This document shows, in pieces, positions 3,729-28,213 of a stretch of 64,000 nt of DNA. Each line of letters starts with the position of its first letter. Positions within the stretch are counted from its first letter, which is position 1. The DNA is from a virus. The notes beneath the pieces were generated by a model. That model saw only the letters and a program-made list of their open reading frames with translations. It was not told the origin of the DNA and did not search any database. The translations under genes and the position numbers were made by a program. The DNA is taken from the IMG/VR virus record IMGVR_UViG_3300034045_000019; one strand, written 5' to 3'.

Positions 3729-4640
3729 ATGATTACTAGTATAAATGAATTTAAAAAATATGTAGTTAATGAAGGCGGTGGTGCTGGAATTGAATTTAAA
3801 CTGCCGGATGTGTTTGTAGAATTAGAGTATAAATTATATAAAAAAAATGATGAGTATAAAATTGATTTACGTACAAGCACTGTAACTTATGAAGGAAAGT
3901 TATCTGCGATTGGCTATGAAGACGGCATTAATGATGTTGATGCTACAAATATGTTTCAAACTGACGTACCAACGCCAGATGATAAATTATTTGATATAAT
4001 TTATGACGTTTATGGCGATGGTACAAGATACACGGCAAGACAAATTCTTGACGATGCTCAAATGAATGAGGTATTTATGTCATTTCAATTATATGTAGAT
4101 TATAGCAAAATGTATAGTGCTGGTTATATCAGATCAGACGTTAATGTTGGTGATGTAATATTTACTGGCAAAGATACAGATACAGATGCTACTGAAATTG
4201 AAGGTCAATTAGAATGGAATGAAGACGGCAATAAAGTTGTTGGCGATTTTGATGATGATAATGCTGATAATAATAATATATTAACAACGGATTATGTTTC
4301 AAATCATATGTTACCGACTTTAAAAGCTACGAAAAAATTTGTTGAGATGTATAACAATGTGTTTAATTTTCAAGATAATATTAGCGATTTGATAAGAAAT
4401 AATGTAACAATTGCATTTGATAACGGTGATATTGATGACTATTTGTTTCAAACGTATTTATCATCTGGTAAAAACAAGTATAATCGTGAAGATGTGCTAG
4501 AAATTGGGTTTGGTGATACACGAAAAGATGAATTGCCTGATTTAATTAATGATATTGTTGATGTATTAAATGAAGATGAATCTTATATTACATATTTATA
4601 TGATGTACATAATGATGATCTTAACGAACTATATAAATAA
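3729..4640 (+). CDS. Acidic hypothetical protein, putative internal head protein
   Basis: N-terminus MITSINEFKKYVVNE shared with other ORFs; AATATATAA at 3706-3714. Confidence 0.7.
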   Translation: MITSINEFKKYVVNEGGGAGIEFKLPDVFVELEYKLYKKNDEYKIDLRTSTVTYEGKLSAIGYEDGINDVDATNMFQTDVPTPDDKLFDIIYDVYGDGTRYTARQILDDAQMNEVFMSFQLYVDYSKMYSAGYIRSDVNVGDVIFTGKDTDTDATEIEGQLEWNEDGNKVVGDFDDDNADNNNILTTDYVSNHMLPTLKATKKFVEMYNNVFNFQDNISDLIRNNVTIAFDNGDIDDYLFQTYLSSGKNKYNREDVLEIGFGDTRKDELPDLINDIVDVLNEDESYITYLYDVHNDDLNELYK

Positions 4641-4656
4641 TTTATCACATAAAATA

Positions 4657-4704
4657 TAAAATAAAAAAAGAGATTCAACTATTGAATCTCTTTTTTTATT
4701 TTAT
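4657..4704 (+). terminator. Intrinsic terminator
   Basis: AAAAAAAGAGATTCAA-CTA-TTGAATCTCTTTTTTT. Confidence 0.85.
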
Positions 4705-4758
4705 GTAGTTTAACTATAAGAATATATAATTGTAATAATTAAATATAAAGACAGCTAA

Positions 4759-7700
4759 ATGTTTACACCCGCATATAAAAAATTAAAAAAAAATGGTACA
4801 ACGTTATACGTTTTTCCATCTGTAGCAGAAGATAAAAATTTTGAGTCACAAAATACAAATTATAATATGAGATTATCTCATTTTGTACTTGTAAATTTTC
4901 CACGACAAAATGGAGATACGTTTGATTTTGAAAATACTTTTGTACAAAACTCGACATCTGTTCAGCCGTCAAATTTTGCCGATGCCTTAGTTGAGAGTTT
5001 AAGAAATTATGTCGCGAATCATGAAGCAACTATTAGAAATTCAAAAATAAATAACACGGACTCATTTTATGATCCATTTGAGTTGTCAACAACAACAGAA
5101 AAAATATTTTGGAAGTGGTGTAAAAAATTAAAATTGATTGATTTTGAAGTTGCTGATATAAATAACGAATTTAATGGTGCGGACCCAAAGTATAATGATA
5201 ACGGGCCTGTGTCTAATACTACACACTTTAGAGAATATTTATGGAAAGAACGTAGTAACACAATTTATAATGTAACAGCGGCGTCTATATCAACTCCAGC
5301 GACGACGATACCAGCTGTTTTGCCGCCATTAACACCGGGTAAACAATTTGGTACAATAACATTAACTGCGAGTACAAATTTAAAACCAGGTGATTATGTT
5401 TTTGTAAATGAACCTGGCATAGACGCAGTTGGTGGTTTTGGATATAGCCAAGCACAATCGTTATTAAAAGTTGTAGGTTTGGCGACAACCACAACAATAA
5501 ATGACACAATAGTCGTAGAAATAGATGCAACGCTTACAGCATTTCCGGGAACTATTACAGATTATGAAATATATAATGCATACGAAAGATTTGTACAATT
5601 TGTATCTGAGATTGGTGGCATGAATAATGTACAACTGCCAGATAAAGCATACACTGAAACATTTGCATATATATCGCATCAACATGGGCAAATGCCTTAT
5701 TCTTTATGGAATATAAAAACAGATAACAATTATAAACCAAATTCACAATACCCAATTTTACCAAGTGAATATCAAGGTGAAATACAAGGTGGTGAAAATG
5801 TGAATAACCCAATATTAGTTGACCCAACAAACCATCCTGGCGACATATGGGCACACTATGATGATGTTTTAAAATATAAGACATCAACTGGTAATATCAA
5901 CCAACGAAATGGTGATTATTATGGTGTAACAATTAACAATAATTTATCGCCGACATTAAAATATCCTGAATTTGATTCTACAAATTTAGATGGGTTAACA
6001 TTGAATTTGAATATTAATGATTATGCTAAAGCAACATCATATATTTATCCAATTGAAACTTTTGGTGAATTTTGTGGTACTGCATTTAATAATGAACCGC
6101 CTAAAGATTTTGAATTTAATGCAATTTTATGGTATTATACATTAGAAGATGTAAGTGGTAATAATTTAGAGACTGCAACAAATTTATATGGTGTTGAATT
6201 TTTAGATACACCAAATAATGATGTATTAACAGCAAAATCACAAATACCTAAAATTAAAAAATTAGTAAGTAATGGTTATCAAGATGGTACATCTTATACA
6301 TTTAGTTTAGACACAAATATTGTAGTTGATTCAGATGCTCCAGTTCCAACATTTGACCCAGATAAGGTGTATTCACTATTTGGTTTGGATTTGTTTAATG
6401 AAGCAATGATGCGAATTACATATTTTAATGACAAATTAACAGAATTTTTAACATCAAATATTGATATAAATAACAAGTTAAATAATTTAACTAGTATAAT
6501 TTATACACAACAAGACATAACTTCCATCCGTAATAAAATGGACCACCTGGAAAATTTATTAACTTTATATTCAACTTTACAAATAGGTGATTCTGATACC
6601 ATAGTTTCTTACTTAGATACAAGTGTTAATCCGCCATTAGTACGGTTAAAAAGTATAGATAAAAAATATGGTAGTGTATACCAATATTATACATCAGATA
6701 TGTACAATGAAAGTATTAATACGAATTCATTAACACAAGTAACAAATATACCTAAAACTATACCAGTAGTATCTGGTAAAGATTTTTTAGTTATAGTTAA
6801 CAATGATGACATATCTGAGCCAACACCAAGTTATGATACAACTGTAATGCAAGATAAATTAGAGTTAATTTTAGACAAAGATTTACAGTATAAACAATCA
6901 ATTGATATTGAAATAGTGCCAAAATTAGCTGGTTCATTTTCAACACAACCATATCCGTTGCATGATAAAAAACTTCAATTTTTTATTAATTATGATGATG
7001 GTAATAATATAAGTAAATTATTTATAAAGGAATTTAGTTTGCCAGTGCTTAAAAATAAAAATGGTGCTAATTATATCAGTGAAGCTGGTAACGACTTAAA
7101 ATATATACCAAAGTGGAATGTGTTATCTATGTTTTATAGCAAAGAAAACAATAATATTAGAAAAATATCATTCATAGTTGACGCGGATTTGATTAATATG
7201 TCGCCAGGTACAACAACATCATTTTTAGATGCTGGTAAACGAATGTTAGTAGAAAATTTATTAATAGAAAGTGACGCAGTCACACCAACAAATAAATATA
7301 CTGATTTATCATCACAATACGAATTATTTAGCGACGGCTTCAACCCAGTGTATAAACCTGGTCATATTATAGACGTAGAAATAATAAACAGCGGCGCTGG
7401 GTATACAAATGGTGTTTATGTGGAAACTATAACGACTGTTGTTGGCGGTACTAATGTTAATACTAATATTGAATTCACCGTAGTAGGTGGTTCAATTATT
7501 AATGCTGAAATTATATCATCTAATTTATTACGAACACCAGACAACGTTGTTATTTATCCAGTTACTATTAATGGTAGTACAGGTACAACACAAGCCAATA
7601 TTAAATTTATACCTAAAGCTATAACAAAAATAACAATTGCGTTCAACCCTGTAGTTAATACTGATATAACTGCGATGTTTGCAAGTTATGATACTGTTTT

Positions 7701-25562: not shown

Positions 25563-26993
25563 ATGAAATTAACTTATTTAGACGAAAAAATAAAAATTGA
25601 AGCTGATTCAAACCAAGAATTGCGTGGAATAAAAAAATGGTTTAATAGATATGTAGAAAATTATATGTTTAGTCCATTATTTAAAAATAAGTTATGGAAC
25701 GGAAAGCGGAGTAGATTTAATGATGAAGAAAGTACTGTGCCAATGGGATTATGGCAAGAAATTTACAAATGTGCTAATGATTTTGGGTATGACATTCAAT
25801 TTACTAACAAAAAAGAATTTCCGTTAAATCGAACAATAAATAAAAAGAAGTTTGAAAAATTTATAATTGATTTTTATGACGGTTACACATATAAAGACGA
25901 AGATTTTAAAGCACGTCCATACCAAATTAGAGTTGCGTACAATATTTTAAAAAACCGTTATTGTAATATAGCAGTTGCAACATCTGGCGGTAAAACTTTT
26001 ATTTACGCGTTAGTATTTTTTTATTTATTAAAAGAAAACAGAGACAGAAAATTTTTACTAATAGTACCATCAAAAACTTTAGTTACTCAATTTTATGATG
26101 ATTTATTAGCGTTTGATTGGAAAAATGAGTTAGATATAAATGTTAAGGAAATTTATGGGGTAGAGGAGAAACCTAGAATAGTATATGAAGATAAAGAAAT
26201 AAATTTATATATTGGCACGTTTCAATCATTATCAAATGCAAAATTATATCCGGCAAAATGGTTTAAACAATTTTATATGGTAACAACAGATGAAGGGCAC
26301 AGGTCAAAAAGTGAATCGTATAAAAAAATATTAAATAAAACAATGAAATCTGCAACATATAGATGGGGCATGTCAGGTTCTTTTCCAGTATCAAGCACAT
26401 ATGAAATGATGGAGATTATGGCAAAAACTGGGCCAGTCGTTGATACAGTGACTGCAAGAGAGTTAATGGACGCTGGATATATAACACAAGTTAAAATAAA
26501 ATCAATATTATTACATCATAATGATTGGGAATTTACTGATTTATTAAGTATAGTATCTCGCAGAGACAGAAAAGCGGCATATGATTTGGAGGTTGAACGT
26601 ATACAAGAATCCCCAGAAAGATTGGTGTTAATAAATGATATAGTATCAAAATGTAAGAGTAATACATTAGTGCTATTTCATAATACTGATTATGGACATA
26701 AACTATTAGAATATTTACAAGAACAAAATAGCGGTTTTATATTTCATTACATAGATGGTAAAATAACAAATAAAAAGCGTAAACCGATTATTGCCGATAT
26801 GGAAGTAACAGCAAAAACAATTGCACCAGTCGAGTATACAATATTAAATTTTGGTGACTTCGAAATTGAAGTTAGATCGTCGTTTAAAATTAAATTAACA
26901 AACGGAGCGCTCAAATTTGCATGTGATATAACAACGAATGATGATGTTGATGATGAATTTATATTAAGTATAAAAGATAAATTCAAACATTAA
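25563..26993 (+). CDS. uvsW: UvsW-like SF2 helicase, N-terminal part (motifs I-IV) plus a non-helicase tail
   Basis: ARPYQ, VATSGGKT, LIVPSKTLVTQ, TDEGH, GMSGS, VLFHNTDYG, YIDG; lacks motifs V-VI; ends CAT TAA C. Confidence 0.92.
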   Translation: MKLTYLDEKIKIEADSNQELRGIKKWFNRYVENYMFSPLFKNKLWNGKRSRFNDEESTVPMGLWQEIYKCANDFGYDIQFTNKKEFPLNRTINKKKFEKFIIDFYDGYTYKDEDFKARPYQIRVAYNILKNRYCNIAVATSGGKTFIYALVFFYLLKENRDRKFLLIVPSKTLVTQFYDDLLAFDWKNELDINVKEIYGVEEKPRIVYEDKEINLYIGTFQSLSNAKLYPAKWFKQFYMVTTDEGHRSKSESYKKILNKTMKSATYRWGMSGSFPVSSTYEMMEIMAKTGPVVDTVTARELMDAGYITQVKIKSILLHHNDWEFTDLLSIVSRRDRKAAYDLEVERIQESPERLVLINDIVSKCKSNTLVLFHNTDYGHKLLEYLQEQNSGFIFHYIDGKITNKKRKPIIADMEVTAKTIAPVEYTILNFGDFEIEVRSSFKIKLTNGALKFACDITTNDDVDDEFILSIKDKFKH

Positions 26994-26994
26994 C

Positions 26995-27093
26995 CAAGAA
27001 TACAATATAATAAATAATATGGCAAGAATTATAGATAAAAGAAAAATAATACGAGACGAAGGGGCGACTAGAATTCTAGTCGCCTCGTATTGA
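26995..27093 (+). CDS. uvsW: UvsW middle segment (+1 frame), QEYNIINNMARIIDKRKIIRDEGATRILVASY*
   Basis: This frame is open 26974-27090, has an ATG at 27019, encodes conserved ILVASY and ends TAT TGA C. Confidence 0.7.
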   Translation, partial: QEYNIINNMARIIDKRKIIRDEGATRILVASY

Positions 27094-27094
27094 C

Positions 27095-27394
27095 GGTACA
27101 TTAAGTACAGGGATTTCAATTAACGCAATAAATAATATAATATTCACTCAAAGCTTTAAAAAAGCACAAGTAATTATACAATCTATAGGTCGTGCATTAC
27201 GTTTACATGCAGATAAAAATACTGCATACATATTTGATTTAGTTGATGTGTTTGCATTTGATGAGTATGCGCAAAAAATTCCAAAAAAATTTAAAAATGT
27301 ATTATATACACACTGGGAAAAACGACTAAAAATATATGATACTGAAGATTACCCACACTCAACAATAAAAATAAATTTAAAAGACCCAAGTTAA
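27095..27394 (+). CDS. uvsW: UvsW C-terminal segment (second +1 frame), helicase motifs V-VI
   Basis: GTLSTGISINAINNIIF...IIQSIGRALRLHADKNTAYIFDLVD; 99 codons with no stop and no in-frame ATG. Confidence 0.85.
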   Translation, partial: GTLSTGISINAINNIIFTQSFKKAQVIIQSIGRALRLHADKNTAYIFDLVDVFAFDEYAQKIPKKFKNVLYTHWEKRLKIYDTEDYPHSTIKINLKDPS

Positions 27395-27397
27395 TAT

Positions 27398-28213
27398 ATG
27401 TATTTAAAAAGCGCATTTAATTATACCGGTGCAAAGTATGCGATATTAGACCAAATTCTACCATACTTTCCAGATAATTCTGAAATAGATTTATTTATAG
27501 ACTTATTTTGTGGCGGAGGCTCAGTATTTATGAATACTAATTATGAAAACATTATCGCCAATGATATTATCACACCATTAATTAAATTTTATAAAGAACT
27601 TGGCAAATGTTCAACATTTGATGAATTAAAATCAAAACTTGACCCGTATATACTTGATAAAACCGACAAAGACGCGTATTACACTGCGCGTAACGAGTTT
27701 AATAAAACTGGTAACCCATTTCAGTTCTTTTGTTTAATACAAAGCAGTATGAGCAATTTAATGAGGTTTAATAAAAGTGGCGGGTTTAACTCAACATATG
27801 GTAAACGTACATATAATCCTCAAACTGAAATAAAATTAAAAGCATATTTTAATAAAAATAAAGAGCTAAATGTTAAATATATGAATGAAGAATTTGATAT
27901 TTTATTAGATAATGCTTTATTATTAGATAAAAAACTATTTGTATATTTAGACCCACCATATTTTATAACAAATGCTGGATATAATACAACATGGAACGTT
28001 GAAAACGAATTGAAATTATATAAATATTTAGATTTATTAAATGATAATGGACATAAATTTATGATGTCTAATGTATCAATACATAAAGATATTGAAAATC
28101 CATATTTAGATAAACTAAAAAAATATAATATAATTAATATTAAACATAATTATAACAAAATAGCTAAAAATAAAGGTGGTAAAACACAAGAGATAATTGT
28201 TATAAATTATTAA
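27398..28213 (+). CDS. dam: DNA adenine methyltransferase (Dam/D12 class)
   Basis: FNYTGAKY, DLFCGGGSV, YLDPPY, FMMSN, EIIVINY. Confidence 0.93.
   Translation: MYLKSAFNYTGAKYAILDQILPYFPDNSEIDLFIDLFCGGGSVFMNTNYENIIANDIITPLIKFYKELGKCSTFDELKSKLDPYILDKTDKDAYYTARNEFNKTGNPFQFFCLIQSSMSNLMRFNKSGGFNSTYGKRTYNPQTEIKLKAYFNKNKELNVKYMNEEFDILLDNALLLDKKLFVYLDPPYFITNAGYNTTWNVENELKLYKYLDLLNDNGHKFMMSNVSIHKDIENPYLDKLKKYNIINIKHNYNKIAKNKGGKTQEIIVINY

Follow-up and report, generated by a model that had tools for sequence, protein, structure and literature searches.

A probable homing-cassette remnant and a candidate short ribosomal hop in a viral uvsW helicase gene

The 64,000-nt DNA of IMG/VR virus record IMGVR_UViG_3300034045_000019 (the whole stretch analysed, hereafter the window) contains a gene for a UvsW-type helicase whose coding sequence is distributed over three reading frames. 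The initial annotation had interpreted this as a single ~607-aa helicase produced by two recoding events at similar sites. Every coordinate of the arrangement was re-checked and all agree with the sequence. Frame 0 is open at 25563-26993 (476 aa) and its product ends in ..KFKH; the +1 frame is open at 26974-27093 and ends in ..RILVASY; the next +1 frame is open at 27080-27394, with GTLSTG encoded from 27095. The two junctions, CAT-TAA-C at 26988-26994 (site 1) and TAT-TGA-C at 27088-27094 (site 2), are present as first described, and re-reading of the frames also bore out a third frame that carries GTLSTG and QSIGRALR in 99 stop-free codons (27095-27391) without an ATG. We propose that a mobile homing-endonuclease cassette, since reduced to a remnant, gave rise to this arrangement, and that ribosomes would cross site 2 by a short hop. 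The features distinguished are as follows.

25563-26993, plus strand: uvsW-N gene (476 aa), with a UvsW_N domain, superfamily 2 (SF2) helicase motifs I-IV and a putatively cassette-derived C-terminal extension; stop codon TAA at 26991-26993.
26808-26990, plus strand: the C-terminal extension (CTE), ~60 aa, consensus VEYTILNFGDYE..ILLSNG..K.A.DI..NDDIDD, delimited by alignments.
26994-27018: 25-nt spacer, at the place where relatives carry a gene for a 315-332-aa Mob-type HNH homing endonuclease, lost in the window.
27019-27090, plus strand: first open reading frame (ORF) of uvsW-C, 24 codons, encoding MARIIDKRKIIRDEGAT, i.e. a cassette-specific N-terminal extension (NTE) followed by RILVASY.
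27061-27086, plus strand: 11-bp hairpin with arms 27061-27071 and 27076-27086 and loop AATT; a single nucleotide separates it from the take-off codon.
27091-27094, plus strand: 4-nt coding gap TGAC, comprising the stop codon TGA and the proposed landing triplet GAC (27092-27094).
27095-27394, plus strand: second ORF of uvsW-C, 99 codons from GGT to the TAA stop, encoding GTLSTG (motif V) and QSIGRALR (motif VI).

The helicase identity was assigned on the basis of domain, family and structural similarity. The uvsW-N product matches the Pfam families PF21241 (33 bits, cutoff 25.3), ResIII (2e-20) and DEAD (2e-15), and the Helicase_C match is divided between this gene and the C-terminal ORF. The second ORF of uvsW-C is similar to helicase PHROGs (phrog_9690, 3e-21). 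An AlphaFold2 model of a natural fused relative (P0079, residues 325-601), used for the structure comparison in place of the window's own joined product, had a predicted local distance difference test (pLDDT) score of 86, and its best match in the PDB was T4 UvsW (2OCA, E 8e-11). On the strength of this model the assignment to UvsW-type SF2 helicases is secure.

Protein searches and alignments distinguished three classes of homologues. The first comprises uninterrupted helicases of 520-540 aa with the motif ..EMEKT..VLVAS[FY]GTLSTG... Proteins of the second class are ~470-500 aa long and end, as in the window, in the conserved ~60-aa CTE. The third consists of a few natural fusions (P0048, P0079 and L007), in which the extension continues into ..KVLVASYGTLSTG... 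The CTE is missing from uninterrupted UvsW genes and was found in all split relatives. Three sources supplied the DNA downstream of the split relatives: IMG/VR, assemblies that contain the listed proteins, and a pattern scan of metagenomes.

Contig L001 (5,198 bp, JGI sample 3300034033) is 100% identical to the window over 26780-27420, both junctions included, and the layout of site 2 recurs in 46 distinct sequences from many independent metagenomes. The frame breaks are therefore real, as the initial annotation had maintained when it judged assembly errors the poorer explanation.

In each of the 46 sequences the 24-codon ORF ends with TAY, which is followed by a gap and then by GGN ACN YTN, the beginning of GTLSTG. 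The gap always lies at the same codon boundary, and wherever the sequence of a gap-bearing relative extends far enough upstream, the ORF counts exactly 24 codons from ATG to TAY. In four relatives the gap is missing. RILVASY in this ORF is a cassette copy of the strand preceding motif V, and the take-off codon of the window is TAT at 27088-27090. Six gap lengths were found: 4 nt (10 sequences), 6 nt (1), 7 nt (30), 9 nt (1), 10 nt (2) and 17 nt (2). The recurrent types are TGAC (8), TGAGGAC, TGAGTAC and TGAGTAT (7 each), TGAGGAT (3), TGAGTAG (2) and TGAGAAC (2); TGAGAAT, TAGTAA, TAAC, TAAGGAC and CAAC occur once each, in addition to two gaps of 10 nt, one of 9 nt and two of 17 nt. The first gap triplet is TGA, TAA or TAG in 44/46 sequences (TGA in the window). 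Two closely related alleles have no stop after the take-off codon, namely L100 (3318-3370, TAT-CAAC-GGT) and L120 (598-665, TAC followed by 17 nt from CCC); if these are functional, something else than a stop must cause the pausing.

In every case the gap ends with a NAN triplet (GAC 16, TAT 8, TAC 7, AAC 5, TAA 4, GAT 3, TAG 2, AAT 1). It is cognate to the take-off TAY in 15 sequences, and the remaining 31 agree with TAY at two of the three positions. The chance of the observed match is ~0.33 per independent variant. A hop from TAY onto the NAN triplet before GGN fits all 46 gaps. In gaps of at least 7 nt, Glu in the +1 frame would be encoded by GAG in 33/33 sequences, whereas 81% of flanking Glu codons are GAA, and the constraint therefore acts at the nucleotide rather than the codon level.

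Both parts of uvsW-C are under purifying selection. The downstream ORF is intact in all 46 sequences (86-106 codons; two contigs end first), with a median proportion of nonsynonymous differences (pN) of 0.165 against 0.72 for synonymous ones (pS) and dN/dS of ~0.14; for the 24-codon ORF, pN is 0.088 and pS 0.52. Across the 46 gap-bearing sequences the downstream frame has no conserved start codon. In the window the sole in-frame GTG lies beyond motifs V-VI and no TTG was noted, while the TTG found in 20/46 sequences is a by-product of the GTT Val codon of the stem, so an independent start of the C-terminal ORF was rejected. Selection on both ORFs together with the missing downstream start indicates that both are translated, the second by ribosomes coming from the first. 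The gaps of L100 (4 nt) and L120 (17 nt) differ greatly in length, yet the sequences are 96% identical downstream; gap length is thus free to change while the flanks are constrained.

The palindrome reported at 27061-27086 proved to be an 11-bp stem, including one G-U pair, with a folding energy of -21.1 kcal/mol (z -4.7; none of 200 shuffled sequences was as stable). Three gap-bearing loci folded at -19 to -21.6 kcal/mol (z -4.3 to -5.0), in contrast to -5 to -11 kcal/mol (z +0.7 to -1.5) for four gapless relatives. Across the 46 aligned sequences 99.6% of stem cells are paired, although loci from the metagenome scan overstate this constancy because the search pattern fixed much of the 3′ arm. 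Positions of the 5′ arm outside ACTARR and the covarying pair were free in that pattern, and 12 loci found by protein search alone have the same hairpin. Changes in the hairpin are compensatory and synonymous. Where the third base of the Ala codon pairs with that of the Val codon, GC occurs in 17 sequences, AU in 11, GU in 8 and UA in 6, and a compensatory change specific to the window replaced A-U with G-C at the loop-adjacent pair. The covariation score of 0.165 was reached in 0/500 shuffles (0.085), and slid controls collapsed. The palindrome occurs once in the window, and its interpretation as a repeated mobile element was discarded.

At site 1 the comparison of relatives gave a different result. 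A conserved ATG opens the 24-codon ORF (MA[RK]I[IV]DKRK..ATK[VI]LVASY) in every split relative checked. Among 39 loci with a CTE match, this ATG lies ~1 kb past the stop of the N gene in 21, with a 315-332-aa ORF between, 138-355 nt after the stop in 6/39, and at -8 to 60 nt in 12/39. In the window it is located at 27019, 25 nt after the uvsW-N stop. The intervening ORF, which at L095 spans 4028-4987, matches PHROG families annotated as HNH endonuclease and homing endonuclease (E 1e-20, phrog_12434, and 1e-11), shares 33% identity over 118 aa with T4-like mobC (tblastn) and has an HH..N..H motif; it was unrecognised in a Pfam search. Split loci without the nuclease comprise the window and 11 others. 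In one relative, L063 (3943-5314), breaks divide the endonuclease gene into ORFs of 74, 210 and 74 aa, there is no gap and the hairpin is weakened; this locus looks like an intermediate in cassette decay.

The frame relation between the N and C parts in relatives is 0, +1 or +2. Together with the endonuclease gene lying between them in 21 relatives and the conserved ATG, this identifies site 1, on comparative grounds, as a gene boundary, and we regard it as the ordinary end of the uvsW-N gene rather than a recoding site. The stem at 26954-26985 does exist, but it is AT-rich (-5 to -11 kcal/mol, z -0.5 to -3.5 depending on the stretch folded) and not conserved among relatives, in which the last uvsW-N codon is mostly AAA, not YAT. 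The two sites do not match, therefore, as the initial annotation had supposed. Of the features that it suggested looking for in homologues, TAY, a stop in nearly all sequences and a covarying stem are found at site 2, and neither the YAT codon nor the stem is conserved at site 1. In place of one ~607-aa helicase, two proteins are predicted: UvsW-N (476 aa) and UvsW-C (24 + 99 = 123 aa). Rfam gave no family match over 26700-27450, and hence no group I intron remnant or known RNA was recognised at the locus.

The tails that the cassette would add are better conserved than the helicase itself: identity to a distant clade is 60% for the CTE and 79% for the NTE, compared with 37% for the helicase core. 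Such conservation of the tails across clades fits horizontal spread of the cassette. The 24-aa leader is conserved and basic; its NTE part spans 27019-27069, and both CTE and NTE form beta strands in the AlphaFold2 model of the fused relative. They probably act as a clamp reuniting the two helicase halves. Comparison of the CTE with Hint/intein blocks gave a faint signal (Hom_end_hint in 2/15 members, E 0.011) and nothing significant in the PDB. A split intein was rejected, since the splicing residues are absent: the CTE begins ..K-VEYTIL and the NTE runs straight into ..ATKVLVASY. Neither tail was found in the listed INPHARED records of cultured phages, and the DNA-level search returned a single weak match.

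We hypothesize, with a probability that we put at about 0.72, that site 2 is the place of a short ribosome hop and that the locus is what remains of a homing cassette in uvsW. A mobile element would have inserted between motifs IV and V. Its full form would consist of the CTE added to the upstream half, the gene for a Mob-type HNH endonuclease, a new start with a 17-aa NTE and the recoded ..ILVASY strand, and a short untranslated gap; in the window the endonuclease gene would have been lost and the other parts kept. UvsW-N would terminate at the TAA at 26991, and UvsW-C would start at the ATG at 27019. After 24 codons, with peptidyl-tRNA-Tyr on TAT and TGA in the A site, the ribosome would not terminate but would slide 4 nt, so that the tRNA re-pairs on GAC (two of three positions) and decoding restarts at GGT. 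This hop of the Tyr tRNA onto GAC, restoring VASY-GTLSTG, was already put forward in the initial annotation, and the comparative data favour it; the conserved layout, intact downstream ORF and hairpin covariation in 46 sequences likewise speak for its view of site 2 as programmed recoding. The joined UvsW-C (123 aa) would read ..ILVASY-GTLSTG.., with VASY-GTLSTG as found in uninterrupted helicases. The predicted junction is ILVASYGTLSTG.. without an extra Asp, and the tryptic junction peptide would be ILVASYGTLSTGISINAINNIIFTQSFK; a +1 shift would instead yield ILVASYGTLSTGISINAINNIIFTQSFK with D after Y.

General knowledge of ribosome footprints suggests that, once TAT occupies the P site, the hairpin's 3′ arm (-12 to -2) would lie inside the ribosome and its 5′ arm just outside. 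The stem could then re-zip behind the ribosome and so pull the mRNA forward. We infer this driver, the hop itself and its efficiency from the comparisons described above. mRNA refolding has been proposed as a forward force for gene 60 (bioRxiv 10.1101/2024.12.09.627546). The parallel with MobA and gene 60 suggests that the cassette's nuclease may be kept from cutting the allele that carries it by the gap, together with the recoded codons of the hairpin, and that the two tails may aid reassembly of the halves into one helicase.

Several observations weigh against a hop, whose closest competitor is a prfB-like programmed +1 frameshift at TAT-TGA-C with the product ..VASY-D-GTLSTG... The evidence for the hop is comparative and computational throughout, and part of the constancy of the hairpin reflects the scan pattern. 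The landing triplet is cognate in only 15/46 sequences, GAC of the window being mismatched at the first codon position, and in two gaps (CAAC and the 17-nt gap starting with CCC) the take-off codon is not followed by a stop. The genome seemingly makes no use of Shine-Dalgarno sequences, so mechanisms derived from E. coli may not transfer directly: none of 35 long genes of the window (0/35) has such a sequence within 25 nt upstream, and their starts, like the ATG at 27019, all lie in A/T-rich sequence, which suggests a host without Shine-Dalgarno initiation, e.g. a member of the Bacteroidota. Finally, 42/46 gaps are 3n+1 nt long and 40 of these are stop-free in the +1 frame; a +1 shift adding one to three residues would therefore be workable in most lineages, the window included (VASY-D-GTL), and UGA-C is a weak stop context that favours +1 shifting, as in prfB. 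Relatives with 7- and 10-nt gaps would then gain two to three residues, and incompatible alleles would have to be dead or recently broken. Yet six such alleles, spread over several clades, all keep intact downstream ORFs: the in-frame TAGTAA, TGAGGCTAA, the two 17-nt gaps and the two TGAGTAG gaps with TAG in the +1 frame. One fixed frameshift is excluded, because gaps of 4, 6, 7, 9, 10 and 17 nt occur, some of them with stops in every usable frame, and the near-identity of L100 and L120 downstream of gaps of different length tells against it too. A +1 shift would moreover require tRNA-Tyr to re-pair on AUU or ACU, with zero or one matching position, and to do so without a Shine-Dalgarno-like element 3 nt upstream; it also offers no reason why the last gap triplet always has A in the middle, or for the 33/33 GAG (against 19% GAG usage). 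We consider the +1 frameshift unlikely.

The remaining explanations fare worse. That the C-terminal part is a decaying pseudogene with UvsW-N acting alone, or that three pieces assemble without any recoding, would accommodate the stop directly after the 24-codon ORF and the computational nature of the case for a hop. It is nevertheless very improbable in view of the C-terminal ORF, which is intact in 46/46 sequences, under strong purifying selection and conserved in motifs V and VI, and which has no conserved start codon. SF2 helicases without motifs V-VI are, in addition, expected to be inactive. Tandem recoding at both sites, fusing three frames into a ~607-aa helicase, could draw on the +1 frame being open across the N-gene stop in the window and on the weak AT-rich stem before that stop. 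By a rough estimate rather than a calculation, however, the 15 stop-free codons before the ATG are not unusual, and ~1 kb with an endonuclease gene separates the ORFs in 21 relatives, while the 12 relatives with short spacers show a frame relation of 0, +1 or +2 and a last N codon that is mostly AAA. Conservation of the ATG and of the 24-codon length also argues against continuous translation through site 1, and we judge this possibility extremely remote. As for sequencing or assembly indels, the genome is AT-rich and homopolymer runs occur near site 1, but site 2 lies outside any homopolymer and the same layout was recovered from a second, identical contig and from many independent assemblies, so that we give indels practically no credence. 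An alternative genetic code or suppressor tRNA was also rejected: the genes of the window are open under table 11, and ARAGORN identified a cluster of three tRNA genes at 403-653 (Arg-TCT, Ser-GCT and Arg-ACG) and no tRNA-Tyr or suppressor tRNA in the window.

Other interruptions were observed in uvsW genes of relatives. P0030 (472 aa, on a 90-kb contig) has a uvsW of the uninterrupted type (..VLVASFGTLSTG..) with a later frame break, after ..QSFKK and before motif VI, which points to an assembly error or else to a further site of recoding or insertion. In P0060, P0083, P0089, P0091 and P0113 and at loci L072-L081, Hint/intein domains (PF01079, PF14890) follow approximately residue 244, which is not the site of the cassette, and the helicase parts on either side are ~1.8 kb apart. 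The uvsW gene thus appears to be a hot spot for mobile elements of several kinds.

Bypassing used by organisms is known almost entirely from two cases, T4 gene 60 with its topoisomerase homologues and one yeast mitochondrial genome. We lean towards the view that the uvsW loci form a family, not described before, in which Mob-type homing cassettes carry natural bypass elements of short range ('stop-hops' of 4-17 nt); this would make them a second, independent phage example. Their distinctive features are a minimal gap, an unusually clear covarying 5′ hairpin and at least 17 natural gap variants among 46 distinct sequences, which make the mechanism testable with small reporters; if the hop is real, dozens of length and landing-codon variants would be available for testing forward sliding driven by mRNA refolding. 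Gene callers will list such helicases as truncated or as pseudogenes, and short frame-breaking gaps beside homing endonuclease genes should not be written off as sequencing errors. A full-text literature search turned up no account of bypassing in a helicase gene, uvsW included, and the term 'stop-hop' led only to the 2016 recoding review.

According to that review, no natural in-frame stop-hop was known, and shorter counterparts of bypassing had 'long been presumed' (PMC5009743). The synthetic stop-hops made in E. coli (Weiss et al. 1987; O'Connor et al. 1989), which the review covers and which were engineered and of low efficiency (PMC5009743), resemble the proposed event in that peptidyl-tRNA leaves a stop-adjacent codon and re-pairs a few nucleotides downstream in any frame; the uvsW site differs in being natural, conserved and equipped with a dedicated hairpin. 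Short skipped inserts with take-off and landing codons that do not always match are also known as the 'byps' of Magnusiomyces capitatus mitochondria. These are, however, mitochondrial, 27-55 nt long, reportedly largely independent of mRNA context and not linked to homing cassettes (PMC5009743). With prfB (RF2) the site shares UGA-C in the A site and a stimulator upstream of the shift site, but not a slippery P-site codon or a Shine-Dalgarno sequence at 3-nt spacing. Its frame change also varies, with four gaps of 3n or 3n+2 nt and two with a stop in the +1 frame.

Homing endonucleases are known to target uvsW in T4-like phages: T4 SegE is a GIY-YIG enzyme directed at this gene (PMC2988022). 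Unlike the cassette described here, SegE is free-standing beside uvsW and involves neither a gene split nor recoding (PMC2988022). A closer parallel is the nrdA gene of phage Aeh1, an essential gene split by the homing endonuclease MobE, with CTE and NTE tails added and the halves reassembling; in contrast to uvsW, a bypass element is not reported for nrdA.

The MobA element of T4 consists, in order, of a CTE, an HNH endonuclease, an NTE (a unique part followed by recoded host codons) and a bypass (Manning & Atkins, bioRxiv 10.1101/2022.08.31.505936), the last being the 50-nt translational bypass of mobA/gene 39/gene 60 (Bonocora et al. 2011, as cited in bioRxiv 10.1101/2022.08.31.505936). The uvsW cassette has the same plan. 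A conserved gene of DNA metabolism is split at a conserved motif, its upstream half gaining a CTE. Between the halves, 21 relatives have the gene for a Mob-type HNH endonuclease, with the parts in this order; the window is without it. The downstream half has acquired its own start and an NTE, along with a copy, encoded by the element, of the host codons that were deleted, and an untranslated gap, beginning with a stop after the take-off codon, follows directly on that copy. As with MobA, there are derivatives without the nuclease (the window), without the gap (L063) or re-fused (L007, P0048 and P0079). MobA elements have been stated to be exclusive to the topoisomerase II large subunit (Topo2L), and bypass cassettes have been reported only in topoisomerase genes, with helicases unmentioned (bioRxiv 10.1101/2022.08.31.505936). 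Because its host gene is the uvsW helicase, not that of the topoisomerase II large subunit, the cassette is regarded as a sister element rather than a MobA element.

As in gene 60-type bypassing, one conserved protein would be made from two ORFs and a non-coding gap, the downstream ORF having no start of its own. The uvsW gap, however, is 4-17 nt long as opposed to 50, the take-off codon is Tyr TAY instead of Gly GGA, the landing triplet is often a mere two-of-three match, and the upstream ORF has 24 codons compared with ~46. The gap is too short for a take-off stem-loop covering the take-off codon and the start of the gap, and none lies within it; the conserved, covarying stem is placed wholly 5′ of the take-off codon, whereas the 5′ stem-loop of gene 60 has been reported as not conserved. 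Judged from sequence, the architecture of the uvsW cassette matches the MobA/gene 60 type, and appears new in its host gene and in its far shorter gap.

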